Positions 9,451 through 28,695 of a stretch of 32,000 nucleotides of DNA are shown in pieces. The position numbers were made by a program, and so were the translations under genes. Origin of the DNA: Methanocaldococcus jannaschii DSM 2661. Lineage in GTDB: Archaea > AGJL01 > Methanococci > Methanococcales > Methanocaldococcaceae. The first letter of the stretch is position 1. Every line of letters begins with the position of its first letter. Where the stretch lies: the NCBI RefSeq assembly GCF_000091665.1, contig NC_000909.1, positions 443,581 through 475,580 of the forward strand. Reading direction: 5' to 3'. The notes below the pieces were generated by a model. It made no database searches, was not told where the DNA came from, and saw only the letters and a program-made list of their open reading frames with translations.

Positions 9451-9738
9451 TTTAAATATCTTCCATTTCAATTATATATAACCATAGAGGGGGCGTAGCC
9501 CCCTCTATTGGGATACTCCCCCAAATCTTGCTTGGACATTAATTGGGGCTGAAAGCCCCAACTTATAACCAATTATCAAAGAAAATATTATTTACTATGG
9601 AATTTAGAAGCCCAAAGGGCTTCTATAGTGCCTTATTTAATTAAAAACTTTGATAATTGGTTAAATGGACGTGAAGTATCCCAATAGAAGGTTTCCTCCT
9701 ATGGGAGTTAAATGTCTTCCATTTCAGTTATTATATAA
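9451..9738. repeat. palindromic modular element E1 (core 9482-9706) with flanking about 31-bp direct repeats
   Basis: The terminal inverted hairpin modules are CCATAGAGGGGGCGTAGCCCCCTCTATTGGGATAC (9482-9516) and GTATCCCAATAGAAGGTTTCCTCCTATGG (9676-9704). Module D is inside, together with a nested segment bounded by the inverted repeat AACCAATTATCAAAG / CTTTGATAATTGGTT. DR 9451-9481 and DR 9707-9738 each copy the last codons (EMEDI) plus the stop of the 9708 gene. Confidence 0.85.
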
Positions 9739-10412
9739 TTTCCTTCCTTTCCTTCAAATCCTCTAACTAAGAATGTTTTTCCATTTAATTTTAAGCAGAT
9801 TTCTCTAATTGTATCGTCAATTCCATACTCTTCAAGCATATCTAAAATTCCTGGCATAAATTGCTCTAATGTTGCTGGCGGGATGTAGCATCTTTTTGAA
9901 GATGTTCCAAAGTGTATCTTTCCAAACACCTTAATTTTTACATCTACATCTTCTGGGTCTATTTCTCCACAATTTCTGCAAATATAAACTAAACCTCTTG
10001 GTTTAATCTTAGTATCAACAATTCCTCTACATATTTTACAGTAATAATTTACAAATATTGTTGATTGTGAAACCTCCAATATGGCTGGAACTTTCACATC
10101 TAAAACTTCTCCTCTATTGTATAGTTGTTCTTTAGGAATTTCTGGAATTTCTCTTGGATATTTTACACCTTTAATAACTTTTTCAACTATTCTAACGCTC
10201 TTTTCTTCTGTTATTCTACCAAATATCTCGTAACATTTTCCTCTCTCTAAAGGAATTGTTGTTATAAAATTGGCTACTCCATCTTTATCAACCATAGTTC
10301 CAATGTAAAATATTGAACCTTCTTCACTCTCCTTCCTTCTGATATCTACAATTTTAACTTTTGTTAAAATTTGAGAATTTGGTAGTAGTGATTTTATCTT
10401 TCCTAATACCAT
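9708..10412 (-). CDS. hypothetical protein with OB-like N-domain and CxxC...CxxC zinc ribbon
   Basis: MVLGKIKSLLPNSQ... with CKICRG...CRNCGE motifs. ATG 10412 follows SD GGTGAT, and the ORF-track GTG 10421 lies in the SD. Confidence 0.7.
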   Translation of the reverse strand: MVLGKIKSLLPNSQILTKVKIVDIRRKESEEGSIFYIGTMVDKDGVANFITTIPLERGKCYEIFGRITEEKSVRIVEKVIKGVKYPREIPEIPKEQLYNRGEVLDVKVPAILEVSQSTIFVNYYCKICRGIVDTKIKPRGLVYICRNCGEIDPEDVDVKIKVFGKIHFGTSSKRCYIPPATLEQFMPGILDMLEEYGIDDTIREICLKLNGKTFLVRGFEGKEGNYIITEMEDI

Positions 10413-10544
10413 AAATATCACCTGATTATTAATTGGATTGAATTTACACCTCCGCCATAAGGCGGAGGTGTTAGGGTGTGTCCCAATAGAGGGTTTCCCC
10501 CTATGGTGGTTTTATTTTTCCCAATACCATAAAATATCACCTAA
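10398..10544. repeat. palindromic modular element E2 (core 10426-10515: module B + module A) with about 27-bp direct repeats
   Basis: Module B is AATTTACACCTCCGCCATAAGGCGGAGGTGTTAGGG (10441-10476) and module A is GTCCCAATAGAGGGTTTCCCCCTATGG (10480-10506). DRs are CTTTCCTAATACCATAAATATCACCTGA (10398-10425) and TTTTCCCAATACCATAAAATATCACCTAA (10516-10544). Each DR carries the SD, the ATG and the first 5 codons of the downstream gene. Confidence 0.85.
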
Positions 10545-10564
10545 AAAATCAATTTATTGATAAT

Positions 10565-11281
10565 TTAACTATTTATTGTTTCTTCATCAGTCTCTTCCTC
10601 TTCTTTATCCTCTTCTATCAATTCAGGAGCAACTCTTGGCAATACAACCTCATCTATAAACTTTTTATGGACAATGTATTCCTTAGGTTGAACAATTACA
10701 GGTATATCATTTAGCGTTAAAGATATTGCTTTCCTTAATTCTCCTTCCTCAGTTCTAAATTCAACAGCTCCAAATCTCACAAATCCTCTGATAAACATCC
10801 CCGTAAATATTTCTGGATTTGCTTTAATTCCAAACAGTCTCAATCTTCCCCATCCGTATCCATCAAATATTCTAAATATGGTGTAATCTTTACCCGTAGA
10901 TGTTCTTTTATGTTGAACACCTACAACAATTCCAACTATTATCCCTCTCTGAATAGGGACTCCATTAATATCCAAGTAAGTTATTCTTTCATCATCTTCG
11001 TCAATTCTTTTCAAATACTTGGCTCTACACAGAGACAATGGAATTGGAACTGCAGTTCTCATTTCTTGCCCTTTAACAACCTTCAAATCATCTAAATTTC
11101 CAACAAACCTTACATCTTTTTTTGGATATGGTTCATATATACCCAATATGCTTTCATAATCATCAGCCTTAATTTGCAAATAGATTTCCTCTAACTCCTC
11201 AACACCTTCATCAGTATAGACGGTTGAGTATCTCACAATCTCTACTCTATCATCCTCAATTTTTATCCCATATTTTACCAT
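10565..11281 (-). CDS. hypothetical protein, OB-fold-like core with acidic C-terminal tail
   Basis: MVKYGIKIEDDRVEI...GIIVGIVVGVQHKRTSTGKDYTIFRIFDGYGWGRLRLFG... ending in EEDKEEEETDEE. ATG 11281 follows SD GGTGATG. Confidence 0.7.
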   Translation of the reverse strand: MVKYGIKIEDDRVEIVRYSTVYTDEGVEELEEIYLQIKADDYESILGIYEPYPKKDVRFVGNLDDLKVVKGQEMRTAVPIPLSLCRAKYLKRIDEDDERITYLDINGVPIQRGIIVGIVVGVQHKRTSTGKDYTIFRIFDGYGWGRLRLFGIKANPEIFTGMFIRGFVRFGAVEFRTEEGELRKAISLTLNDIPVIVQPKEYIVHKKFIDEVVLPRVAPELIEEDKEEEETDEETINS

Positions 11282-11350
11282 AATCATCACCTGTAATAAT
11301 TGGTAATAATAATTTATGTGACTATATGACTATACAAATCTTTATATATG

Positions 11351-11375
11351 CCCATATATATACTTTTCGGTTAAA
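11351..11375 (-). promoter_or_regulatory. BRE/TATA promoter candidate for the 10565..11281 gene
   Basis: The minus strand reads TTTAACCGAAAAGTATATATATGGG, about 70 nt upstream of ATG 11281. It is nearly identical to the motif at 7156..7136. Confidence 0.5.
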
Positions 11376-11553
11376 CCAACTTGATGCTAAAAAAAAATCA
11401 ATACTTAATATAAAAACAGAAATCTCAATAGATTCATCAAAAATAGCTTAAAAATAAATTTATTATTGGGACTTCTGCAGTTTATATATCAACTTTGGAA
11501 TTTAGATGCCTAAAAGACATTAATTTCCTTTAAAGATTTATTCTTGTATTATA

Positions 11554-12306
11554 TTATTTCTTTTCCCACATCTTTATGGCATTAGTTGGACATACATCTA
11601 CACATCTTCCACACAATATGCACTTATCCTTATTAATCTTAACTTTATCTCCATCTTGATCAATTGCGTTGATAGGACATTCTTCAATACAAACTAAACA
11701 TCCAACACATAGATTTTTATCAACTTCAATGTCTCTGGTTTTTATTACCTCTCCAAGCTCTCTCTCAACCTTTATACATTTTTTTGGGCAGACCTCAGCA
11801 CAAGCACCACAACCCATACATAAATCTAAATTAACCTCAATGCTCTTTCTTCTAACTGCCTTTATAGCATTTGTTGGACAGAATCTTGCACAAATTCCGC
11901 ATTTTATGCAAGTATTTTCATCAAGCTCATATTTTTTTAACCTAATCTTTCTGTGAGGGATTGATTTTTCTTTTATTGTATAATGAACTTCGCTATCTTC
12001 AATCTCTGCCCTTCCCTCTATAACATATATTGCTCCAACAGGGCATGTTTGGGCACAAATTTCACATTTAACACATTTATCTTCAATTATCTTTGCAGAT
12101 TTTTTAACCTTCGCTTTTTCAATTGCATCTACTGGGCATTCTTTGTAGCAAAGATTGCATCTAATACATTTAGTTTCGTTGATATATAACAATTTATAAG
12201 TTATGGGAGTTATTTTTTTGGCTACCTCATTAATATACTTTTTATCCCCATCTATCTTTGATAATATCTCATCCAATGACTTTTTTATCTCAATCAATGT
12301 AATCAC
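11554..12306 (-). CDS. polyferredoxin, six CxxCxxCxxxCP motifs (third ferredoxin gene of the eha cluster)
   Basis: Motifs: CIRCNLCYKECP, CVKCEICAQTCP, CIKCGICARFCP, CMGCGACAEVCP, CVGCLVCIEECP, CILCGRCVDVCP. Confidence 0.85.
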   Translation of the reverse strand: MITLIEIKKSLDEILSKIDGDKKYINEVAKKITPITYKLLYINETKCIRCNLCYKECPVDAIEKAKVKKSAKIIEDKCVKCEICAQTCPVGAIYVIEGRAEIEDSEVHYTIKEKSIPHRKIRLKKYELDENTCIKCGICARFCPTNAIKAVRRKSIEVNLDLCMGCGACAEVCPKKCIKVERELGEVIKTRDIEVDKNLCVGCLVCIEECPINAIDQDGDKVKINKDKCILCGRCVDVCPTNAIKMWEKK

Positions 12307-12349
12307 CTTTCAATGCAAACTATTATGACTTTTTATGAAATAGTATTTC

Positions 12350-12841
12350 TTATCGTAATATTATAGCATTTAACGGGCAAATTTCTTCACACTTTCCACA
12401 AAGCTCACACTTATTTATATCAATCCTTATTTTACTTCCATATTCTTCAATAGCATTAAATGGGCAATTCCTTAAACAAACTAAGCAAGATGCACATCTC
12501 TCACTTATATAATCAATAAATTCATACTTATCTACTTCAATAATCCTTGCATCTTCGTTAATTTCGCATCTCAATCTTATTATTACAATTGCATTTGTTG
12601 GACAAACTTTTTTGCATTTTCCACAAAACACACATTTTTCTTTATTAATAGTTATATATAACCCATCACTACTGTAGGTTATTGCATTCACTGGGCAGAT
12701 TTCAATACATTTTCCACAGCTAATGCATTTATCCTCTTTAACGATAATCTCTCTTTTATTTAAAATAATATTAAATTTTGGGAGTAATTGGATATTTTTA
12801 TCAGCTAAATTGAAATGTTTAGCTATTATTTCCTTTATCAT
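12350..12841 (-). CDS. polyferredoxin, four CxxCxxCxxxCP motifs
   Basis: Motifs: CISCGKCIEICP, CVFCGKCKKVCP, CASCLVCLRNCP, CELCGKCEEICP. The start overlaps the end of the upstream gene by 23 nt. Confidence 0.85.
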   Translation of the reverse strand: MIKEIIAKHFNLADKNIQLLPKFNIILNKREIIVKEDKCISCGKCIEICPVNAITYSSDGLYITINKEKCVFCGKCKKVCPTNAIVIIRLRCEINEDARIIEVDKYEFIDYISERCASCLVCLRNCPFNAIEEYGSKIRIDINKCELCGKCEEICPLNAIILR

Positions 12842-14036
12842 ACAGCTCCCTCTTTTTTTCCATTATTCTTTTATTTTCTTCATAAACTCTCCTTTTTAGC
12901 TCTTCTTTCAACTTTTTGAGGGATAACTTTTCAATCTCTTCTTTAACCTTTCCATACTTCTCAGTGTATAAGACTAAATCCTTCTCAATGCTCTCAATTA
13001 TCTTATCCTCTATTATTCTAACTTTAACCGCCTCTTCTGCCTCTTCTGGCTTAACAACTTTTATAGCTCCAACAGGACATTCTCTTGCGCATGCTCCTCC
13101 TCTAACACACAACTCTGGAACAATATATGGTAGTTTTGTCTCTTTGCTAATTTTAATAGCCCCTGACCCACACACTTTCTGACAAATTCTACAGCCAATA
13201 CACAAATCCTCATCAATAACGTAGCAAATATCCTTCCTCTTTGGTATAATTGGTTTATAAATCCTTATTGCAGTAGTTGAACAAACTTCTATACATAAAC
13301 CACACTTTACGCACTCAACAACCTTTTTTTCATTTAAATCAATCTCTCCTACGCATACATCTTTACATATTCCACAACTTACACACAAGCCACTAACAAT
13401 ATGTGGAATTTTTTCAATAACGTTCTCCTTAATTTCCAACTTCCCAGTAATTTTTTTATTTTTAATTTCAAAGGCTTTATCTATCTTCTCTTTCAATGTT
13501 TTTTCATCAACAACAACTATTGCATTCTCTATAGGACAAACTTTGATACATTCTTTACAAGAAATACATAAAGCCATATTTATTACATATTTCCCTTCTT
13601 TACGCTCAATTACATTGATTGGGCAAGCTCTTTCGCAATTTCCACATCTAACACAGACTTCCTCGTCAATTATAAGATTGCTATATTTAGGTTTATCAAA
13701 AAATAAGCCCTCTGTCTCAACCCTATGCTTATCCATCTCTAAAACTCCTGTTGGACAAACTTCAATACAGTTGGCACATGCTACACAAGAACCTTCATCA
13801 ATCACTGGAAGTTTTTTGTTATACTCTTCGTTGTATATCATTTCAATTGCAAAGGCTGGACAACTTTCCTTACAACCTTCACAGGATATACATTTCTCAG
13901 GAAATTTAACAATTGGAGGTATTTTTCTATATCTTTCTGGAGGAATATAGGAGCTTTTATCTGATTTTGCATCAATAAATCTTTTAATCCACTTTTTTCT
14001 TGCAAATTCATAAAGATACCATAGCGAAGATGCCAT
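12819..14036 (-). CDS. ehaP: polyferredoxin with eight cluster motifs (one degenerate) and a charged coiled-coil-like tail
   Basis: Seven CxxCxxCxxxC motifs plus CVRGGACARECP. ATG 14036 follows SD GGTGA, which contains the ehaO stop codon. The gene symbol is assigned by position after ehaO only. Confidence 0.8.
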   Translation of the reverse strand: MASSLWYLYEFARKKWIKRFIDAKSDKSSYIPPERYRKIPPIVKFPEKCISCEGCKESCPAFAIEMIYNEEYNKKLPVIDEGSCVACANCIEVCPTGVLEMDKHRVETEGLFFDKPKYSNLIIDEEVCVRCGNCERACPINVIERKEGKYVINMALCISCKECIKVCPIENAIVVVDEKTLKEKIDKAFEIKNKKITGKLEIKENVIEKIPHIVSGLCVSCGICKDVCVGEIDLNEKKVVECVKCGLCIEVCSTTAIRIYKPIIPKRKDICYVIDEDLCIGCRICQKVCGSGAIKISKETKLPYIVPELCVRGGACARECPVGAIKVVKPEEAEEAVKVRIIEDKIIESIEKDLVLYTEKYGKVKEEIEKLSLKKLKEELKRRVYEENKRIMEKKRELYDKGNNS

Positions 14037-14041
14037 AACAA

Positions 14042-15184
14042 TCACCTAAATTTAATACTAATTGGAATCTCCTTGCCATCCTTTACTGCAACTATGCATC
14101 TCTCTGTGCATGAAACGCAAGGGTCGATACTTGTATAAGCAGATACAGCATCAGCTACAGTTGGACAAGTCTTTAGCATATATTTATACGCCTCCAAGTT
14201 CATAACTGTAGGAGTTCTAATCATTATCCTCTTTATTATCCCTCCATCAGTTATTTCCATCCTATAAGTTACCTCTCCTCTTGGAGCTTCATTCCTCCAC
14301 TCTCCTTTTCCTCCTTTAATCTCTGCCTTAACCCTTATATCTCCAGAACACTCTTCATAATGCTCTAAAGCCTCTCTAATTAATCTAACGCTCTCAATAA
14401 TCTCTTCATGCCTAACCATCATCCTTGCAAAGTTATCTCCTTCCTCCCTCCACACTGGCTTAAATTTCAACTCTTGATATGTTGAATGTCTTAACCTCCA
14501 ATCACTTTCTGGCAATCCAGAACCTCTACAAATTGGCCCAACAGCCCTCGTCCTCATAACTTCATGATATGGCAAAATACCAATTTCTTTACTTCTTAAA
14601 GCTATTAAAGGCCCTGTTTCAAAAACCTCAATAATATTTTTTAGTTCATCTTCAAAGATATCGAGTTTTTTATATATCTCATCCATCATCTCTCTATTTA
14701 TGTCTCTTCTAACTCCCCCAATTACATTATAACCCATATTAACCCTATTTCCAGTAATCATCTCCATTAAATCCATAATTATTTCCCTAACATTCAAAAG
14801 CCACATAGCAAGTGTTTCATGTTCAATAGATAAATTATACACTGCTGAAGCAATTAAATGGCTGTGTATTCTCTCTAATTCACAAGTAACTACCCTAAGA
14901 TATTTTGCCTTGTCTGGAATCTCTATCTTTGATATATGCTCAATGCATTCAGCAAACGTCATCGTATGCACATAGGAACAGATACCACAAACTCTTTCTG
15001 CTAAGTGAATTCCTTTATGGCAATGTTTTCCTTCCATAATTTTTTCTATTCCTCTATGAACATAACCCATTTCAATTTCAGCATCAACAGGTTTCTCTCC
15101 ATCTAAAACAAGTTTAATCCTTAACGGCTCTTTCAATACTGGATGAATTGGTCCTATAGGAATTGTTGCCATATTTTCACTCAT
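14042..15184 (-). CDS. ehaO: energy-converting [NiFe] hydrogenase A large subunit
   Basis: N-terminal RVCGICS and C-terminal DPCVSCTER Ni-Fe ligand motifs. Size is that of NuoD/HycE-like proteins (380 aa). Confidence 0.9.
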
Positions 15185-15623
15185 CTTTATTTTTTAATCT
15201 CTTTTCTCTCATTGCTATTGCCTTAGGAGCTACCTTTAAGATTGTTTCAATAATCTCAGAAGGTCTTGGAGGACATCCAGGGATTTTTGCATCTACAGGA
15301 ATAACTTTATCAACTCCTCCAACAACATGTCCTTCCTTAAAAATCCCTCCACTCAATGCACAAGCTCCAACAGCAACAACTATCTTTGGTTCTGGTGTTT
15401 TTTCATAAATCTCCTTTAATCTCTCTGCCCATTGTAAAGTTACTGGCCCTGTAACTAATAAAACATCCGCTTCTCTTGGGTTATTATGGACGTAAATCCC
15501 ATACTGCTCAATATCGTATCTTGGAGCTAAGCAGGCAACTATCTCAATATCGCATCCATTACAACCCCCAGTATTGACAACACAAACATGTATTGACCTT
15601 TTTCTGAATAATTCTTTCATCAT
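15177..15623 (-). CDS. ehaN: energy-converting hydrogenase A small subunit (NuoB-like)
   Basis: [17 protein letters not shown] and IPGCPPRP motifs. The ATGATG start at 15623 follows SD GGAGG. Confidence 0.9.
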
Positions 15624-15746
15624 GGCTATTCCTCCCAATAAATTTTAAGAGGCATTGCTTCTTTGCAGAAGCAATGCATCCTGGGTATCCCAATAGGGCG
15701 AAGCCCTATGGTTTCTGAATAATTCTTTCATCATGGCTATTCCTCC
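15601..15746. repeat. palindromic modular element E3 (core 15636-15711: module C + module A) with perfect 35-bp direct repeats
   Basis: TTTCTGAATAATTCTTTCATCATGGCTATTCCTCC occurs at both 15601-15635 and 15712-15746 (35/35 identical by eye). The core contains GAGGCATTGCTTCTTTGCAGAAGCAATGCATC and GTATCCCAATAGGGCGAAGCCCTATGG. Confidence 0.9.
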
Positions 15747-16150
15747 TTTAACAATTTGATAATCATCTGCCTACCTTCCTCCAACGCCTCTTTATATGGC
15801 TTTTTATACAGCAAATAACTTTCAACTACCTTTTTTCTAATTAAATCTGCTTCTTCTTTTTTTATAAGTCCAAAGAAATCACTAAGCCAGCACAGCCCTA
15901 AATCAATATCTACCTTCCTTCCTAAACAGCCCATCTTTGCCTGCTCTGCATAAGCATGGAGTTCATAACAAGATGCAAAATCCAATTTTTTTGCAAATAT
16001 TTCAATAACTTCCTCAACCTCTATCTTTAAAGCTTTAGCTATTGGAATAAATACATCATCCATTAAAAATCTATTATCCTTAAGAACATTCATCTTCTGT
16101 TTTAATGAATTCTCAACATATTTTTTGTCAATATCAACAATCTCAGTCAT
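15737..16150 (-). CDS. ehaM: Eha hydrophilic subunit
   Basis: Soluble protein of about 137 aa between the membrane subunits and ehaN. Named by colinearity with the published ehaA-T gene order. ATG 16150 follows SD GGTGG. Confidence 0.65.
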
Positions 16151-16152
16151 AA

Positions 16153-16437
16153 TTACCACCTCAAGAAATAAAGAAACAGGGCAACTGCTAATCCAACAAC
16201 AAATTCAACTCTTCCATATCCAGGTCTCATACCTAAAGGAAATCCAATTAATAGACATCCAAGCATATACAACGGAGAATTAATTAAAATCCCCCCAAAT
16301 ACTGAAATAGCTAAGGCAAACTTATCAATACCTTTTTCTACATAAGGAGAGGAGTATTTTCTATAGCTATATTCCAATCCAATAAAGTTTCCAATGATAA
16401 ACAATATTATAGCCAAATTTAGCTCAAATAATCCCAT
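16153..16437 (-). CDS. ehaL: Eha small integral membrane subunit
   Basis: 94 aa, about 3 TM helices. Named by operon position. Confidence 0.65.
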
Positions 16438-16448
16438 GATTTCACCAT

Positions 16449-16694
16449 TTACACAGGAATGTAGAGTTTATAAATTGCATATGCAAAGAAAGCTAAAACT
16501 AAGAGCATAAATAAAACCTCAATATCTTCCATTTTATGGGCTATTTTTTTGTTTATGGTTGAGATTGTTAATATCAAGATTAAGCTAAATGCTAAAACTA
16601 CTGGAATGACATTTATTTGCAATAGATTAACCAATACACAATAAATCACGGCAATAATGCATGCAATTGTAAAGAAATAAATGTAGCTTTTCAT
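16449..16694 (-). CDS. ehaK: Eha small integral membrane subunit
   Basis: [18 protein letters not shown]..., about 3 TM helices. ATG 16694 follows SD GGTGG. Confidence 0.65.
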
Positions 16695-16914
16695 TTTATC
16701 CACCCACTGTTAGTCTGTATAAGACCCATAGAGGGGCTTCGCCCCTCTATTGGGATACTCCCCAAATCTTACTAATTTACACCTCCGAGCGTAAGCGAGG
16801 AGGTGTTAGGTTTTGGTGAAGCTTTTACTAAAAGGTTCATCCCAATAGGGGGTTTCCCCTATGGATACAATGTAGCTTTTCATTTTATCCACCCACTATT
16901 AATCGATATAGGAC
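16680..16914. repeat. palindromic modular element E4, full-length composite (core 16726-16868: A + B + E + inverted A) with 46-bp direct repeats
   Basis: The left terminal copy of module A, CCATAGAGGGGCTTCGCCCCTCTATTGGGATAC (16726-16758), is inverted relative to the right terminal copy, CATCCCAATAGGGGGTTTCCCCTATGG (16838-16864). Module B is at 16774-16810. DR 16680-16725 versus 16869-16914 is 41/46 identical. The DR covers the ehaJ C-terminus and stop (VLYRL[I/T]VGG*) plus the ehaK SD, ATG and first 4 codons. Confidence 0.9.
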
Positions 16915-17763
16915 ATCACACAATACAAGTCCAGCAATTGTCATTTGAAGCATGACTGAATGATGAGGAGCTAATAATGGTGTTAATCCATTAACAAATG
17001 CTAAAATCACTGTCATTACAACCATTACAGCCAATGTTAATACAGGGCTGTTTATTACTAAAGGACCAATAAATACAGCTATAAAGAGCCAGAGCAATAC
17101 AAAGTATGCTATTGCCTCTGCAATGTAGATTATAGCCCCTAATAAACCATAATGCTCTGTCATATATCCGCTAACAATATCTTTACCCTTAACTATCCCA
17201 AATGGACTGTTTGGAGCTTTTGAAACAAGCAATATAAAGAATGCGAATGCACAAATTGGCATTTTAAACAATAAACTGCCGTGTATTTCTTGATAACTCA
17301 ATATATCTGAAATTAAAACTGAATGTGTTGTTAAGTATATGGCAGCAACAACTGCAAATAATGGCACTTCTGCAGCTGCTGAAAAGACACTTCTAACCCC
17401 TCCTATCTTTCCATAAGGAGACCCAGATGACAAACCACAACCATGCTCCACTATTTTTTGCAATACATAGATTCCTATAATTATAAGGAGGGATGACTTG
17501 AAATCAATAGCTATAATTAATGCAGCTAACCAAATAGCAATATCCAATAAAGCTACAAATATATAGAGAGGATTTCCAGCAGTTATTGGGAAAGTTATTT
17601 CCTTTACATAGAATTTTAGTGTATGCAATAGATATTGGATTATTGGAGGTCCTGGTCTTCCTTGAATCCTTGCCATTATTTTTCTATGTAATCCAAGTAA
17701 CAGAGAACCAACAAGAAATGCATGGATTGTTAAGTTTATAGCTCCGATAAGTGAAGTATCCAT
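16885..17763 (-). CDS. ehaJ: Eha membrane subunit, NuoH/HycD-like
   Basis: About 292-aa polytopic membrane protein with an RPGPPIIQ-type loop typical of the NuoH/HycD family. ATG 17763 follows SD GGGTGA. Confidence 0.8.
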   Translation of the reverse strand: MDTSLIGAINLTIHAFLVGSLLLGLHRKIMARIQGRPGPPIIQYLLHTLKFYVKEITFPITAGNPLYIFVALLDIAIWLAALIIAIDFKSSLLIIIGIYVLQKIVEHGCGLSSGSPYGKIGGVRSVFSAAAEVPLFAVVAAIYLTTHSVLISDILSYQEIHGSLLFKMPICAFAFFILLVSKAPNSPFGIVKGKDIVSGYMTEHYGLLGAIIYIAEAIAYFVLLWLFIAVFIGPLVINSPVLTLAVMVVMTVILAFVNGLTPLLAPHHSVMLQMTIAGLVLCDVLYRLIVGG

Positions 17764-17953
17764 AAGCATCACCCAGATTTTATCAGTTGTAAATTTACAC
17801 TTCCGAGCGAAGCGAGGAGGTGTTAGTTTTTGATGAAATGGAGAGCTATGCTTTCCAGCTATGAAAACTCTAAGAGTTTTCGTTCAACTTTTTCTAAAAG
17901 TTTCGTTTATAGTCCCTATCAGTGAAGTATCCATATCCTCACCCAGATTTTTA
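17746..17953. repeat. palindromic modular element E5 (core 17784-17916: module B + AT-richer hairpins + truncated A end) with about 38-bp direct repeats
   Basis: Module B is AATTTACACTTCCGAGCGAAGCGAGGAGGTGTTAG (17792-17826). Hairpins are GAAAACTCTAAGAGTTTTC and AACTTTTTCTAAAAGTTT. DR GATAAGTGAAGTATCCATAAGCATCACCCAGATTTTAT (17746-17783) pairs with TATCAGTGAAGTATCCATATCCTCACCCAGATTTTTAT (17917-17953). Each DR carries the SD, ATG and first 6 codons of ehaJ. Confidence 0.85.
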
Positions 17954-17964
17954 TTTTAATATTT

Positions 17965-18165
17965 TCAATATCCTCTAAATGGCAATTTTCCAGCATCTTT
18001 TCTTCTTGTTTTTGGAATTATAAATGCTCCAATTCCATATAGGAGAGAAGGAACTGCAATAATATATAGGACATAGCAAATCAACCCATTAAGCATAACA
18101 ATCCCAATAACACACAACAAACCAATAATCAATGAATATAATCCATATTTTCTCTCTTCATCCAT
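17965..18165 (-). CDS. ehaI: Eha small integral membrane subunit
   Basis: MDEERKYGLYSLIIGLLCVIGIVML..., 2 TM helices. ATG 18165 follows SD GGTGA. Confidence 0.65.
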   Translation of the reverse strand: MDEERKYGLYSLIIGLLCVIGIVMLNGLICYVLYIIAVPSLLYGIGAFIIPKTRRKDAGKLPFRGY

Positions 18166-18184
18166 GTTTTTCACCTAAAGTATT

Positions 18185-18841
18185 TTAAATTGTCAATAGA
18201 ATCTCAACAGTCCTTACAATCAACAACAGTGAGGAGAGGTGTATCATCAATATGTATGGTGAGCCAGGAGCTCTAAACATCTCCGCCTTTGCAGCATAGA
18301 AGGGAGCTATCCCAGTTTCTCCAGCCATTCCAGCGGCAAATATAATTTTTTCAAATAATAGGGATGTTTGTATTTTTGGCAGTTCAAAGATTGATAATGT
18401 CCCTGTTTTAGCCAATATCATCCCTGCAGAACCAAATAATGGAAGGGTGGCAATCATCGCTATAAGTCCATACTGATAACTTGCATTTAACACCCATTCT
18501 CTTTTAACTGCTGAGACAATACCTATATTTGCAATCCCAACTAAAGTTAAGAATAAGGCATAATCAAACAAATCATAAGTTAGCATAGCTCCAGCAGTTG
18601 CTATTCCGCAGACAATAGCCATCATTCTCCTAATTTTTAACTCATTTAGTGTTACTACCTCTAATTTATCTTCAATTTTAAATTTTTGAGCTTCTAACTG
18701 CTTTTCTGGCTTTGTTAAATAAACTATGATGGTAAATATTACTGCAGTGATAAATCCAATAATTGAAAATTCTGAAAAGCCAAATACAATGTCTCCAAAT
18801 GGAACAATTCCAAATAGATAGCCAGTTATTGATTCAATCAT
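18185..18841 (-). CDS. ehaH: Eha integral membrane subunit
   Basis: 218-aa polytopic membrane protein. Named by operon position. Confidence 0.7.
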   Translation of the reverse strand: MIESITGYLFGIVPFGDIVFGFSEFSIIGFITAVIFTIIVYLTKPEKQLEAQKFKIEDKLEVVTLNELKIRRMMAIVCGIATAGAMLTYDLFDYALFLTLVGIANIGIVSAVKREWVLNASYQYGLIAMIATLPLFGSAGMILAKTGTLSIFELPKIQTSLLFEKIIFAAGMAGETGIAPFYAAKAEMFRAPGSPYILMIHLSSLLLIVRTVEILLTI

Positions 18842-18968
18842 TTTATCTCACCTAATTTTATTAAATAATGGACATTAATTAGGGCTGAAAGCCCTAACTT
18901 AATGGACGGGTGGTATAGCAATAGGAGGTCTCCTCCTATGCTTTGTCAATCATCTTACCTCACCTATA
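18835..18968. repeat. palindromic modular element E6 (core 18857-18946: module D + degenerate module A) with 22-bp direct repeats
   Basis: Module D is GGACATTAATTAGGGCTGAAAGCCCTAACTTAATGGACG, and module A is GTATAGCAATAGGAGGTCTCCTCCTATG (18913-18940). DR CAATCATTTTATCTCACCTAAT (18835-18856) pairs with CAATCATCTTACCTCACCTATA (18947-18968). The DR is the ehaG-stop / ehaH-start ATGA overlap with its SD. Confidence 0.85.
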
Positions 18969-19645
18969 TATCCAATAAGTCCAAGTTTTGAGCCAACCTT
19001 TATAACTAAACCTAAACCAGCCATCAATAGACACAGTAACCATTTATCTGGGAACACAAAGAAACCTATAAATCCAAATATCCACAAAGCCCATGCAATT
19101 CCAGATAATCCAGATATTCCCTCCCACATTGTTTTTAATTCCTCTGAAATCTCCACGCCAATAACTCTCTGAGATAGTGCATAAAACAGCAATCCAGTAG
19201 CTATAACCGCCCCTCCAGTAAATCCACTCAATATAGCTCCATAAACAATTAAAATTATTGCCAAAAATTTTGGTGAGGTTTTTAAAATTTCCATATGAAT
19301 ATCATACTTCAATTCTCCTGTATATAGTGGAAGTTTAAACTCTTCAAACAACTTGTAGCTTTTTGGCTTAGGTCTTTTTGATTTTAGATATTTTCTTGTT
19401 ATTAAAACCTCTGAAACTGCTAAAAGTTCAGCTAAACTAACAACTAAACCTGGCAAAATTAACGCTTCAGCTAAATCTGTTCCAACACCTGCTATAATTA
19501 TAAGCATGGCACACTCAACAACATCAGTCAATATTAAAGCATGTAAATCATTCTTTTGAAATCCAATAGCCAATAATGACAAAATTCCAATAGCAAATCC
19601 AACCAATATCGTTGGATGGTATATACTGTAGATGATGTTCTCCAT
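18950..19645 (-). CDS. ehaG: Eha integral membrane subunit
   Basis: About 231-aa polytopic membrane protein. ATG 19645 follows SD GGTGGGAG. Confidence 0.7.
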
Positions 19646-19654
19646 CTCTCCCAC

Positions 19655-20116
19655 CTAATCCTTGTTGAAGAATAACCAGCTAAATATTATGAACGATATT
19701 AGCAGTATAGAACTTTCAAGCACTGTATCCATTCCTCTTGTATAGTATAGGATTTCATCCAATATTCCTCCAGGTGTTGAGACTATTGTTGTCCCAAAGT
19801 AGTAGGTTTTATCTTTAATCCATTCAGCTATTGGAGTTAGATAGGCAGTTATCTTTCCAAGATTAGGTTCATATTGTGGATATTGAGCTTTTAACTCTGC
19901 AGGTTCTTTTAATGGAATCCCTCCTCTATCATAAGGTGCTAATGGTGTTTTTAGTGTTTGAGAGTGAGGAATTGGTTTTGGATAAAGTTGATTGGGATTT
20001 AAGTAATGAGGCATCAATAACCCAAATATAAAGACTAAAGCTAAGAATACAGAGAATATTCTTGGGACAATTTCTGGCTTTGATAAATAGTTCCATATTT
20101 TACCAAGTTTTTTCAT
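19655..20116 (-). CDS. ehaF: Eha membrane-anchored subunit
   Basis: [34 protein letters not shown]... with TM helices at the N and C termini. ATG 20116 follows SD GAGGTGGG. Confidence 0.7.
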
Positions 20117-20253
20117 TATTACCCACCTCAAATTTTTCCAAACAAATTAATCAAAATTAATTTACACCTCCGAGCGTAAGCGAGGAGGTGTTAGGGTGTA
20201 TCCCAATAGAGGGTTTCCCTCTATGGTTTCCAAGTTTTTTCATTATTTCCCCC
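20101..20253. repeat. palindromic modular element E7 (core 20128-20226: module B + module A) with about 26-bp direct repeats
   Basis: Module B is AATTTACACCTCCGAGCGTAAGCGAGGAGGTGTTAGGG (20159-20196) and module A is GTATCCCAATAGAGGGTTTCCCTCTATGG (20198-20226). DR TACCAAGTTTTTTCATTATTACCCACC (20101-20127) pairs with TTCCAAGTTTTTTCATTATTTCCCCC (20228-20253). Each DR carries the SD, ATG and first 5 codons of ehaF. Confidence 0.88.
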
Positions 20254-20254
20254 T

Positions 20255-20517
20255 TTATTGATTATTTTCTTTATATTCGGCATCTAATATCACTGCTCTA
20301 ATCAAAATTAAACTCAAAACTGCATTAACTGCAATAAATGTCATCAATGCAAGGGCTTCATCATAAGCTAAGAATATTAAAGAAACGCCTATTGTTGGTA
20401 CTTCAACATTTAACATCCTAATTAGGGGATTATCAACTTCGGCCCTATAACAGTTCCAAGAGTTCCAATAATTAATAGTGCATATCCAATATAGAGAATA
20501 TATTCAACGAGTTCCAT
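20255..20517 (-). CDS. ehaE: Eha small membrane subunit, reading frame interrupted by an apparent 1-nt deletion
   Basis: ATG 20517 gives MELVEYILYIGYALLIIGTLGTVIGPKLIIP* (stop 20424..20422). The next frame continues AEVDNPLIRMLNVEVPTIGVSLIFLAYDEALALMTFIAVNAVLSLILIRAVILDAEYKENNQ* (stop 20257..20255). Adding one G to the GGG run (plus-strand CCC 20443-20445) gives a single 87-aa TM protein of the size expected at this operon position. Confidence 0.6.
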
Positions 20518-21074: not shown

Positions 21075-21565
21075 TCCCCTCTATTCATCTTTTTAGCTAT
21101 TTTTCCAAGTAATATAGAGGCATATCTGTGCTCAAATCCTTGAATTGTAAATATTGCCAAGACCATTCCCACAATGAAATATTTTGCTTCAATTATTGGA
21201 TTTAGGAGATAGATAATAGCAGTTATTGTTAAAGCTCCAATAGTTCCAGCATAACCTGGGTCTGCACATAGACGATTACCAATCCAAACCAATAAAGCCG
21301 CTATAAACCCTCCTTCAATTCCCATTAGGTAGTTCATTATTGAAGCCAATAATGTTCCTGCTGAGGCATCTGGAGAGCACACAATATTTCCCATAAAGTA
21401 GCCTCCATTTAAATTTCCACCGATATCTCTAATCTTCTCTCCTATTGTCTTAGCTCCTAAAACTCCTGGCTTTTCTGGAAGTCCAAAATAAGTATCGATA
21501 AGAACAAAGTTAAGCCAGCAGATAATCCCAGCAATAATTATTTTTACAATTTCAACAATCTCCAT
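21071..21565 (-). CDS. ehaB: Eha integral membrane subunit
   Basis: 164 aa, polytopic. The start forms a TAATG overlap with the ehaA stop. Confidence 0.7.
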
Positions 21566-21828
21566 TACGGCTCACCAAATAACTTATCAGCATATTTTGA
21601 TAATAGAGCTCCAAACAGCCCAGCAAAGAATGCCAAGCTTATATAATCCCCAAATAAATTCCTAAATATTGCCTCAATGCCTAAAGCTAAGATTGGTGTT
21701 GGAAATATAATAGATGTCTCAAAGCTAAACCTTATAGGCTTTTCTTTTGGGATTATTGGAAGTTTTAGGACTAAAGCAACAATTACTGATGTTATTAGAG
21801 CTATTAGATATAAAATAATAATATCCAT
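21565..21828 (-). CDS. ehaA: Eha small integral membrane subunit, first gene of the operon
   Basis: [21 protein letters not shown]... ATG 21828 follows SD GGTGAG. The ORF-track ATG 21861 is created by the CCATAG end of element E8 and is rejected as the start. Confidence 0.65.
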
Positions 21829-21833
21829 CACTC

Positions 21834-21960
21834 TCACCAGCAATGAATTATTATACACCATAGGGCTTCGCCCTATTGGGATACCCAGAGCGGGGCTTCA
21901 CTACGTTCAGCCCCACTTTCTTTTATTTCCCTGATTTACCAGCAATGAATTATAACACAA
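21834..21960. repeat. palindromic modular element E8 (core about 21859-21935: module A + a unique hairpin) with about 25-bp direct repeats
   Basis: Module A is CCATAGGGCTTCGCCCTATTGGGATAC (21858-21884), followed by hairpin GCGGGGCTTCACTACGTTCAGCCCCAC. DR TCACCAGCAATGAATTATTATACAC (21834-21858) pairs with TTACCAGCAATGAATTATAACACAA (21936-21960). Each DR carries the last codons (IHCW) plus the stop of the HTH gene. Confidence 0.85.
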
Positions 21961-22634
21961 TCTTTATTTATTGAATAAATTGGTGGAACTTCATCTTTTG
22001 GAAATACTTGGATGATAACCTTCTTCCCAGTTTTTTTCATGAATTTTTTTTCTAATCTCCTAATATCTGAGCAATCTAAGAATATCTCAACATATTTATT
22101 GTCAAGATGTTTTCCTATGACTTTTATTCTCCCTCTTGATAGTTCTATCCTCTCAATATCCATAACTTCTAACCTACTTCTCATCTCATTTAATAAGTTC
22201 TCCTTACTTATTATTAATACAGGGTAGTTTTCAATTAACCTAAGATACCCCTTATCACCTTTTTCAATAATTTCAGATACAAATTCTGCAAAAGTATCTT
22301 CAAACTTTAAAAGGGAGAGTGCATCTAAAAGTTCAATTATTGGATTTTCAACATTGTTTGAGGAGAAACATTTTAATAAACCAAGAGTTACAGCAGTTGC
22401 TATAAGTTTAGTTGCTGGTCTTTTTCCTTTCTCTAACATGCTGAGATGAGATTGACTAATTCCACTTTCTTTAGCTAATTTTGATTGGGTAATTTTTAAT
22501 TTTTCTCTAAAAGCCTGGATATATTGAGGATTTAATAGTATTGCCCTTTCAATAATCTCTAATTTTTTATACATGTTCTCACGAAATTGATATTTGATAT
22601 CTACCAAATAAATTAGGAAAACATATTCCGCCAT
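21936..22634 (-). CDS. XRE-type helix-turn-helix protein with an uncharacterised C-terminal domain
   Basis: The HTH is [28 protein letters not shown]. The start is uncertain: ATG 22634, or ATG 22574 ([11 protein letters not shown]...). Confidence 0.75.
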
Positions 22635-23363: not shown

Positions 23364-23583
23364 AAAATAATGGCTCAGTTCGGGTAAGTATCATCACAGT
23401 TCAGCTAACCCTCTTTTCATCATTGCCATATTTATATATATTTTCAAAATTAATGATTTTTATTAGGAGTTAATAGGGTTTATATGTGTATTATCATGTT
23501 GATAATCACTAATGAAAAAGGTTTTTATTTTATTGGCACTTAAATATTATATACTAAATTCAATAATAAGAAATGGTGAAAAC

Positions 23584-27855: not shown

Positions 27856-28106
27856 GTTTTTGATACAATATTGTTCTTCTTAAACACGAAATATAGGGTT
27901 GGACAAAAATCGTGGAAAAAGAGAGGAGGTGACTATGATGGGTTTCCATACAATACTGTTCTCCTTAAACAATTTTAGAGATTAGGGGGGAGCCGCCCTC
28001 ACACCTCCCGTTTCCATACAACAATGTTCTTCTTAAACAGACTATCAGATGTAACCGATATTATCGATAAACGTTTAGTTTCCATACAACAATGTTCTTC
28101 TTAAAC
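27856..28106 (-). CRISPR. orphan mini-CRISPR array, 4 repeats and 3 spacers
   Basis: Plus-strand repeats: 27856-27885 GTTTTTGATACAATATTGTTCTTCTTAAAC (degenerate), 27942-27970 GTTTCCATACAATACTGTTCTCCTTAAAC, 28010-28038 and 28078-28106 GTTTCCATACAACAATGTTCTTCTTAAAC. Spacers are 56, 39 and 39 nt. The minus-strand repeat GTTTAAGAAGAACATTGTTGTATGGAAAC ends in GAAAC, and the degenerate repeat is distal to the AT-rich leader on the right. Confidence 0.85.
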
Positions 28107-28695
28107 CCTTTATATTTAGATATATTATAACTAATATTTATACTTTACTATTTAAAATTATTAATAACCAATATTAACATTCAATAAAAACCTTTTATTT
28201 TATCTAATAAATTAACAAAAAACCTCTAATCAAATAATAACCTAAAAATCATATCTTACATCTAAAAAATCTCCCCTATTCATTCAAATCTAAATTTTGA
28301 GTAATACTTTTTTAGTGATAATGATTATTTCAACCAAATAGAGAATTTTTAACTAATAAAATTTAAAATTTTCATTTAAAAATCTTTAAAATCAAAATCT
28401 GATAATGTAATCATTGGATAAATTTTTATCAATTTTTCATATACAAATAAAACATATAAAACCAAAACTATAGAAATCTATTTTTTAATTATCTAAAATT
28501 TCAAAAGTTTTTATTAGTTTTACTCAATTTTAAAGATTATTTTTATAACTCCGATTATTTGATTCTATAAAATTATCTCCATAATAAAATCTTTCATAAA
28601 ATCCCTTTAAATTAAAAAAATCTCAAAAATTAGAAAGTTTTTTATTAAAATAATAATTTTCTATTTGTAGTCCATAAAATCAAATATTCAGATAC
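28107..28695 (-). promoter_or_regulatory. CRISPR leader (about 590 bp, ORF-free, very AT-rich)
   Basis: There is no ORF in any frame. The region abuts the best-conserved repeat, with TATA-like TTATAATATAT / AAATATAAAGG just upstream (minus sense) of the first repeat. Confidence 0.6.

Follow-up and report, generated by a model that had tools for sequence, protein, structure and literature searches.

Duplicated gene starts beside hairpin repeats in the eha operon of Methanocaldococcus jannaschii are probably passive insertion footprints

The eha locus and its six inserts

We analyzed a 32,000-nucleotide (nt) stretch of the Methanocaldococcus jannaschii genome (C1:443581-475580, hereafter the window), whose minus strand carries the eha genes from about position 21,565 to 11,554. 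In order along that strand, Pfam matches were found to DUF2109, DUF2108, DUF2107, DUF2106 (EhaF), DUF2105 (EhaG), an NADH-dehydrogenase-N-related protein, NADHdh, EhaL, DUF1959 (EhaM), Oxidored_q6, the 49-kDa large subunit and three polyferredoxins. By these matches the minus-strand genes are subunits of an Eha-type energy-converting hydrogenase. At six gene junctions, which we designate E2 to E7, a GC-rich insert lies between two copies of the downstream gene's Shine-Dalgarno motif (SD), ATG and first codons (Table 1).

A previous sequence-only reading of this DNA had reported that, in six intra-operon cases, the promoter-proximal copy keeps the SD and start codon of the downstream gene and thereby opens a short upstream open reading frame (uORF) that runs into the element. 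It had proposed that ribosomes coming from the upstream cistron start on this decoy, melt the hairpins and terminate upstream of the true start, so that the uORFs preserve translational coupling or tune subunit stoichiometry. When the minus strand was read and translated, all six peptides were reproduced letter for letter, and the promoter-proximal copy was seen to retain an SD-like motif and an ATG at every one of the six junctions. Five of the junctions, E3 to E7, lie in eha, the identity of the surrounding genes being confirmed by Pfam (EhaF, G, H, J, L, M, N and O, plus the polyferredoxins). E2, in contrast to the description of all six as intra-operon, probably lies outside the eha transcript, in a separate one, because neither of its two flanking genes has a Pfam match and because a 263-nt AT-rich gap (11291-11553) with a TATA-like run at about 11366-11354 lies upstream of these genes. 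As for function, the evidence presented here makes it probable that the decoy SD and ATG sites are passive insertion footprints of modular GC-rich hairpin repeats, and not a coupling device.

The duplications themselves are real and far above chance: at random positions of the same geometry (300 controls), repeat scores had a 99th percentile of 12, and the identities between the copies at E2 to E7 are those given in Table 1. The inserts fold into strong GC-rich hairpins (z = -1.5 to -4.5). A recurrent module is a first hairpin that begins with CCATAG and ends with CTATTGG, and at E3 it is followed by a second hairpin and an A/T tail. No Rfam family matched the inserts; the only Rfam matches in the window lie elsewhere and are unrelated, namely three CRISPR-DR42 repeats on the plus strand and the C/D-box small RNA sR3 on the minus strand (27857-28111 and 23373-23427, respectively).

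The second hairpin has CACCTCC/GGAGGTG-type arms at 10445-10475, 16778-16808, 17798-17828 and 20160-20190, and no start codon lies at a usable distance downstream of it. One arm equals the anti-SD sequence at the end of 16S rRNA, and its partner arm is a perfect SD. Masking of SDs in trans by the CACCTCC arm was considered and rejected, the arm being paired inside its own hairpin in every fold. A further element, E1 (9660-9706), consists of a first hairpin and a TCCATTTAA segment directly after the stop of the 234-amino-acid (aa) gene; no long duplication was found there.

Table 1. Junctions, duplicated copies, uORFs and inserts at E2 to E7, in window positions. uORF coordinates start at the decoy ATG and include the whole stop codon; G numbers denote congeneric genomes.
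Feature	Position	Strand	Description
E7 junction			ehaE/ehaF; filled in no other genome
E7 decoy copy	20230..20251	minus	ancestral-type SD (GGGGG), as in empty G001, G002, G013 and G014; decoy ATG 20243; 21/22 identical
E7 uORF	20243 to 20157	minus	28 aa; stop 40 nt before true ATG
E7 insert	20125..20229	minus	105 nt: first hairpin, CACCTCC/GGAGGTG hairpin, A/T filler ending in new SD GAGGTG
E7 distal copy	20103..20124	minus	true ehaF start, ATG 20116 (DUF2106)
E6 junction			ehaG/ehaH; also filled in G001, G011, G012; hairpin-free remnant in G016 and G007; empty in G002, G006, G013, G014, G005, G009
E6 decoy copy	18946..18966	minus	ehaG stop TGA overlapping decoy ATG (ATGA) at 18953; 19/21 identical
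E6 uORF	18953 to 18936	minus	5 aa; stop 94 nt before true ATG
E6 insert	18855..18945	minus	91 nt: GCATAGGAGG... hairpin and TAGGGC/GCCCTA hairpin
E6 distal copy	18834..18854	minus	true ehaH start, ATG 18841
E5 junction			ehaI/ehaJ; also filled in G006, G014, G011, G002 (hairpins, no duplicated start), G012 (duplicate, no hairpins)
E5 decoy copy	17905..17952	minus	SD GGGTGAGG, decoy ATG 17934; SD-ATG spacer is the G001 empty-site allele; 27/31 identical plus an indel-shifted SD
E5 uORF	17934 to 17884	minus	16 aa; stop 120 nt before true ATG
E5 insert	17783..17904	minus	A/U-rich nested hairpins and CACCTCC/GGAAGTG hairpin; no first-type hairpin
E5 distal copy	17734..17782	minus	true ehaJ start, ATG 17763 (NADHdh)
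E4 junction			ehaJ/ehaK; also filled in G013; empty in nine genomes
E4 decoy copy	16869..16914	minus	ehaJ 3' end and stop TAA, SD, decoy ATG 16883; 41/46 identical to 16680-16725
E4 uORF	16883 to 16806	minus	25 aa; stop 111 nt before true ATG
E4 insert	16726..16868	minus	143 nt: first hairpin, small hairpin, CACCTCC/GGAGGTG hairpin, second inverted first-type hairpin
E4 distal copy	16680..16725	minus	true ehaK start, ATG 16694 (EhaK family)
E3 junction			ehaM/ehaN; also filled in G001, G014, G007, G011, G012 (inverted in G012); empty in G002, G006, G013, G005, G009, G010
E3 decoy copy	15712..15746	minus	ehaM stop TAG, SD GGAGGA, decoy ATG 15734; 35/35 identical to 15601-15635
E3 uORF	15734 to 15645	minus	29 aa; stop TAA 8 nt before true SD, 21 nt before true ATG
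E3 insert	15636..15711	minus	76 nt: first hairpin (CCATAG...CTATTGG), second hairpin, A/T tail
E3 distal copy	15601..15635	minus	true SD and ehaN start, ATG 15623 (Oxidored_q6)
E2 junction			also filled in G001, G011; empty in G006, G012, G013, G014, G002, G005
E2 decoy copy	10506..10544	minus	SD AGGTGA, decoy ATG 10530; 25/28 identical
E2 uORF	10530 to 10501	minus	9 aa; stop 88 nt before true ATG
E2 insert	10426..10505	minus	first hairpin and CACCTCC/GGAGGTG hairpin
E2 distal copy	10388..10425	minus	true start ATG 10412 of 234-aa gene without Pfam match

Upstream of E7, the DUF2107 (ehaE-like) gene is split at 20417-20440 on the minus strand by an apparent 1-base deletion, its N-terminal 27 residues lying in another frame. 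The related genome G001 has one extra G at the split point (GGGCCGAAGGTTGAT vs GGGCCGAAGTTGAT), and the split is either a real frameshift or an error of the old genome sequence.

Empty sites, and a family with one insertion mode

The eha region was taken from 16 congeneric genomes and the junctions were cut out between conserved anchors. For each of E2 to E7, several congeners lack the insert and have the duplicated stretch exactly once. At these empty sites the ancestral spacing can be read directly: an ATGA overlap at E6 (in five of the six empty genomes), TAG, 2 nt and ATG at E3, TAA, 1-2 nt and ATG at E4, about 12 nt at E7, and about 26-28 nt at E5 and E2. Filling is patchy and non-nested across species, with no junction filled in all of them; the E7 insert is found only in M. 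jannaschii among the 17 genomes, and at E4 a similar insert occupies the same junction in a single congener (G013). The element content of one and the same junction also differs by species, with nested modules and different stems, and the left junctions of E3 and E4 fall at the identical base in distant species. At E5 the spacers between SD and ATG are swapped: the M. jannaschii decoy has the ancestral GAGGAT and its true start has GATGCTT, and the reverse holds in G006 and G012, which suggests recombination between alleles or copies.

Three further observations concern individual relatives. At E3, G016 (contig L029) has only a remnant of the element tail in a 60-nt spacer, and G007 (L030) has a remnant of the same type together with a second, complete insert that is flanked by a perfect 32-nt duplication at the same base; the state of these two genomes suggests two successive events at one site. 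At E5 in G012 (L026), the 16-codon uORF of the hairpin-less start copy ends on a TGA that lies within the true SD and precedes the true ATG by 5 nt.

Public contigs that are 100% identical to the genome also differ at E3. The junction is precisely empty in L039 and L041, which lack exactly one 35-nt repeat and the 76-nt element, and is filled in L042 and L043. L039 comes from study PRJEB12287, which reportedly sequenced a mock community that included this same strain. That study is cited in a paper on Illumina error profiles (PMC4787001). We did not count the empty contigs as natural polymorphism, since they seem to derive from DNA of this very strain; they may reflect excision in culture, PCR (polymerase chain reaction) jumping between the 35-nt repeats, or assembly collapse (Logan 31-mers). 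Two Joint Genome Institute contigs with odd deletions (L044 and L045) look like assembly problems, in view of a microhomology joint and a run of N, and were set aside.

The inserts belong to a larger family. Copies of the first hairpin (CCATAG, stem, loop, stem, CTATTGG) were sought throughout the genome, and each was given the score of the best ungapped repeat shared by its two flanks. Flanking repeats scored 13-44 in 38 of the 53 first-hairpin copies, above the 99th percentile (12) of 300 random controls, and repeat lengths across the family range from 14 to 51 nt. In nearly all of these 38 copies one repeat lies 0-6 nt from the CCATAG end and the other lies beyond a variable A/T tail. Many of the duplications contain neither an SD nor an ATG: most are gene 3' ends, tRNA 3' ends or intergenic sequence, several of the tRNA ends including the CCA, and the commonest context, by a crude gene call (1,794 genes), is the 3' end of an opposite-strand gene. 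A gene start falls inside the duplication in only about nine cases genome-wide. In start-type and 3'-end-type insertions alike, the copy on the tail side is joined to the gene and the copy on the CCATAG side is an orphan. Duplicated starts are thus the less common product of a single mode of insertion, which characterizes the family and is not specific to eha.

Three hairpin patterns together gave 95 element loci in the genome. The exact motif CCATAG-N(8-16)-CTATTGG occurs 47 times in M. jannaschii vs 0 times in controls, mostly outside called genes. In the 16 congeners it occurs 0-46 times per genome, with 0-1 control matches. The hairpin family thus spans the genus, but the four deepest branches have few copies of the motif or none. 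In addition, a family copy lies antisense at 21836-21953, just upstream of eha, between a 232-aa gene (21936-22634) and a 98-aa gene (21565-21861). This copy belongs to the 3'-end type; its duplication of 16 nt is perfect, and it has no decoy ATG. Only one other 10-kb stretch of the genome, at C1:152000-160000, has six element loci.

Decoy starts, coupling and competing explanations

It has been reported from reporters in Haloferax volcanii and E. coli that the coupling range extends from -8 to +10 nt and that reinitiation is almost abolished at about 20 nt (PMC10666635). The uORF stops of M. jannaschii lie 21-120 nt from the true ATG, outside this range. In eight related copies the distances are 2, 14, 16, 82, 84, 86, 104 and 118 nt, so that across the genus only one of 14 uORF stops falls within 10 nt. 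We also examined predicted folds. In the centroid structure at 37 °C, the element tail pairs with the true SD at E3 only; at 85 °C, which we took as near growth temperature, the true SDs are predicted to be 62-82% unpaired and only the GC-rich core hairpins to persist, with energy parameters that are extrapolated. Given these distances, the SDs predicted to be mostly unpaired and the relatives without inserts, the proposal that the uORFs preserve coupling or tune stoichiometry is not supported.

The steps that had been proposed on the way to coupling fared unevenly. That ribosomes from the upstream cistron start on the decoy is reasonable at E3, E4 and E6, where the upstream stop lies 2, 1 and -4 nt from the decoy ATG. 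That they then melt the hairpins could apply to E3 and E7, whose uORFs are the only ones to cross both hairpins (2/6), and in part to E4, whose uORF crosses the first hairpin only; the E5 uORF ends before the hairpins, and those of E2 and E6 end on a TAG in the first six bases of the element. The frame in which the uORFs enter the element looks random (TAG and CAT frames twice each, ATA frame once). At E7 and at the locus C1:1368192, the SD lies outside the duplication and a new SD-like motif stands in the filler directly before the true start, which is consistent with a shift to independent initiation.

If the decoys had a function, their ATGs might be kept above neutral expectation. We aligned on the ATG 18 filled start-type pairs, from the eha junctions in all genomes and from three other M. 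jannaschii loci; a fuzzy decoy search in all genomes had given spurious pairs at empty sites, and only the 18 pairs confirmed as filled were retained. Mismatches between the copies affected 1 of 54 ATG positions vs 7 of 195 positions in the next 11 bases, a rate at which 1.9 ATG changes are expected. The 14 bases upstream of the ATG (SD and spacer) are the most divergent part of the copies, partly because the duplication boundary and 1-nt indels fall there. All nine confident start-type copies of M. jannaschii retain the ATG, and by a hand estimate the chance of this at the observed identities is about 0.14. Other constraints act on the decoys of E3, E4 and E6, whose SD lies within the last codons of the upstream gene; the decoy ATG of E6 also shares its TG with the TGA of that gene. 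Thus the decoy ATG appears no better conserved than the neighbouring duplicated bases and gives no signal of selection, in a test that is weak because the pairs are non-independent and copies within a genome co-vary. Identity of copies within and between genomes was uneven and distorted by 1-nt indels, and permits a weak conclusion only, namely that the copies co-vary.

Decay of the decoy in older copies, which the sequence-only reading had named as evidence against itself, was found in part. At E5, the decoy ATG is changed to ATAGG in G011, and G002 has the hairpins without any duplicated start. At E3, the element is inverted in G012 and the duplication ends short of the ATG, and in G001 a 10-nt internal duplication brings the uORF to a stop after five codons. 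At E6, the decoy is weakened to GTG in G016 and G007.

An insertion model would account for these observations as follows. On entry, the elements would duplicate an unusually long target of variable length, about 14-51 nt. Where genes follow each other without gaps, an insert that survives would have to fall within the first few downstream codons, with a duplication that also reaches back over the downstream SD and the stop of the upstream gene; one copy would then preserve the end of the upstream gene, and the other would rebuild the full downstream start. The upstream copy would always carry an SD and an ATG because only such inserts survive. At E3, E4 and E6, with their ancestral overlap or 1-2 nt gap, terminating ribosomes would restart on the decoy and make a peptide of 5-29 aa, would stop too far from the true ATG for a hand-over, and the downstream cistron would start independently on its own regenerated and accessible SD. 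The inserts would in this way uncouple translation, not preserve its coupling. The copies are unstable in evolution: their presence varies between sister species, they are nested, they are lost again, possibly by recombination between the repeats, and older decoys decay.

We weighed this explanation against three others. That the uORFs are functional, with coupled ribosomes starting on the decoy, unwinding the hairpins and ending near the true start so as to preserve coupling or set subunit ratios, would fit the upstream stops at E3, E4 and E6, which lie between -4 and +2 nt relative to the decoy ATG, the end of the E3 uORF within a tail able to pair with the true SD at 37 °C, the stops 2-16 nt before the true ATG in G014, G007 and G013, and the retention of the ATG in all nine confident M. 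jannaschii copies. We nevertheless regard it as very improbable. Four of the six uORFs stop 88-120 nt upstream, three of those before or at the first hairpin, and reinitiation coupling requires about 10 nt or less (PMC10666635); the E3 pairing is predicted to be gone at 85 °C; the ATG is kept no better than its neighbours; decoys are lost in several relatives and the sister species' operon works without inserts; and the same duplication mode yields functionless orphans of gene 3' ends and tRNA ends. By another account, which we consider unlikely, the hairpins are kept for their effects on RNA, as stabilizing or processing sites or as translational insulators in the manner of REP (repetitive extragenic palindromic) and ERIC (enterobacterial repetitive intergenic consensus) elements, and the decoys are incidental. 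The strong enrichment in eha, the presence of elements at the same eha junctions in many species, the sense orientation of six of six inserts, core hairpins predicted to persist at 85 °C, and the reported translation-dependent change that ERIC elements cause in the stability of flanking cistrons (PMC2229807) all speak for such a role. However, each junction is empty in some close relative and none is filled in all, the filled junctions vary by species without a nested pattern, and element content at a single junction varies widely.

Alternatively, the duplications may not come from insertion at all: filled alleles could arise and spread by recombination between lineages, and the two copies could be different natural alleles of the start region. 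The swapped E5 spacers of M. jannaschii and G006/G012 agree with this, as do the exact E3 and E4 junctions common to distant species in a family without a target consensus. This origin is nonetheless doubtful, given the identical copies at E3 (35/35) and several other loci, as in a fresh duplication, the exactly single copy at empty sites, and the copy 0-6 nt from the CCATAG end at unrelated loci, which indicates an element-linked event; recombination could have spread alleles after insertion without creating them.

Several observations nevertheless weigh against reading the decoys as passive footprints. Five of the nine start-type insertions in the genome fall in the 15 eha junctions of 1,231 co-directional ones (Fisher P = 1.6e-8, post hoc). 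No 10-kb stretch of the genome has more elements than that of eha, which shares the top count (6 vs a mean of 0.57), and related species carry elements at the same eha junctions; tolerance alone may be insufficient to explain this clustering. All six inserts are in sense orientation, although the antisense 3'-end type is commoner genome-wide. The E3 uORF ends 2-21 nt before the true ATG in three of five genomes, and at 37 °C the E3 element tail can pair with the true SD. Furthermore, the identity between copies may come from gene conversion or repeated re-insertion, because the two copies within a genome co-vary, and this would weaken the neutral-decay test in both directions.

The clustering in eha possibly reflects low expression together with tolerance, a hot spot in this region, the passing of filled alleles from one species to another, or selection for effects at the RNA level. 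A rather speculative extension, to which we give little credence, is that the eha inserts are domesticated, each breaking an ancestral stop/start overlap, parking ribosomes on a decoy ORF and insulating subunit rates that are set by the SDs. If true, this would explain why elements are enriched ten-fold in eha, why all of them are in sense orientation and why the same junctions are hit repeatedly across the genus, and the long target duplication would let the rewiring happen without harm to either gene. Selection for the enrichment would make eha a natural case of repeat insertions rewiring translational coupling in an energy-converting hydrogenase operon.

If the decoys are insertion footprints, as we favour, mobile DNA can be taken up by a compact archaeal operon whose genes overlap, with harm to neither gene, because the long target duplication rebuilds both the upstream end and the downstream start. 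By the same token, SD and ATG copies, and uORFs that mimic starts, need not be regulatory when they stand beside hairpin repeats. The functional uORF reading is unsupported, and the insertion mode and the eha clustering are the parts that deserve further work. The more interesting question is the insertion mechanism, that is, how elements of 60-260 nt that carry no gene make long, variable and polar duplications.

Relation to known systems

By description, the hairpin elements correspond most likely to the MJRE palindromic repeats of M. jannaschii. The likeness lies in the same organism and in short, GC-rich, palindromic repeats of many copies that are mostly extragenic, some with open frames running through them. 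Suyama, Lathe and Bork reportedly described MJRE1-3 in FEBS Lett in 2005 as 141 copies in three groups, and their abstract is said to mention neither long flanking duplications nor regenerated gene starts nor an eha cluster. A literature search for transcript or repeat studies of M. jannaschii found nothing usable.

Small non-coding hairpin inserts that are repeated and co-transcribed with their neighbours are also typical of miniature inverted-repeat transposable elements (MITEs) such as Correia elements. MITEs, however, have a short duplication of fixed length, whereas here it spans 14-51 nt and varies more than three-fold. They also have terminal inverted repeats, in contrast to the conserved hairpin at one end of the M. 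jannaschii elements and the variable A/T tail without an inverted partner at the other; some composite copies carry a second, inverted first hairpin. REP and ERIC elements, as stable hairpins between cistrons of one mRNA, are the nearest functional analogue, and the effect of ERIC on mRNA stability depends on translation reaching the element (PMC2229807). They are unrelated in sequence to the M. jannaschii elements and have neither long duplications nor regenerated starts. The ancestral eha junctions (ATGA, 1-2 nt spacer) fit termination-reinitiation coupling (PMC6728339, PMC10666635), and the decoy inherits this geometry; the uORF stop, at 21-120 nt from the true start, lies beyond the working range.

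The closest parallel for the mode of entry is insertion with long target duplication (Nobusato et al. 2000, cited by Furuta et al. 2010, PMC2853133). As in that system, the direct repeats are long and variable, and a relative's empty site matches just one of the two copies, which was found at all six junctions; the insert contains no transposase, and gene 3' ends or tRNA genes are often included in the repeats. The E3 and E4 repeats exceed the 30-bp threshold of PMC2853133, and the other four measure 21-31 nt. According to the same source, inserts of the Nobusato type are kilobase-sized bacterial restriction-modification units with repeats of >30 to about 400 bp, and no archaeal case passed the screen. 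Those of M. jannaschii differ in being hairpin modules of 76-143 nt, with repeats of 14-51 nt and a fixed polarity.

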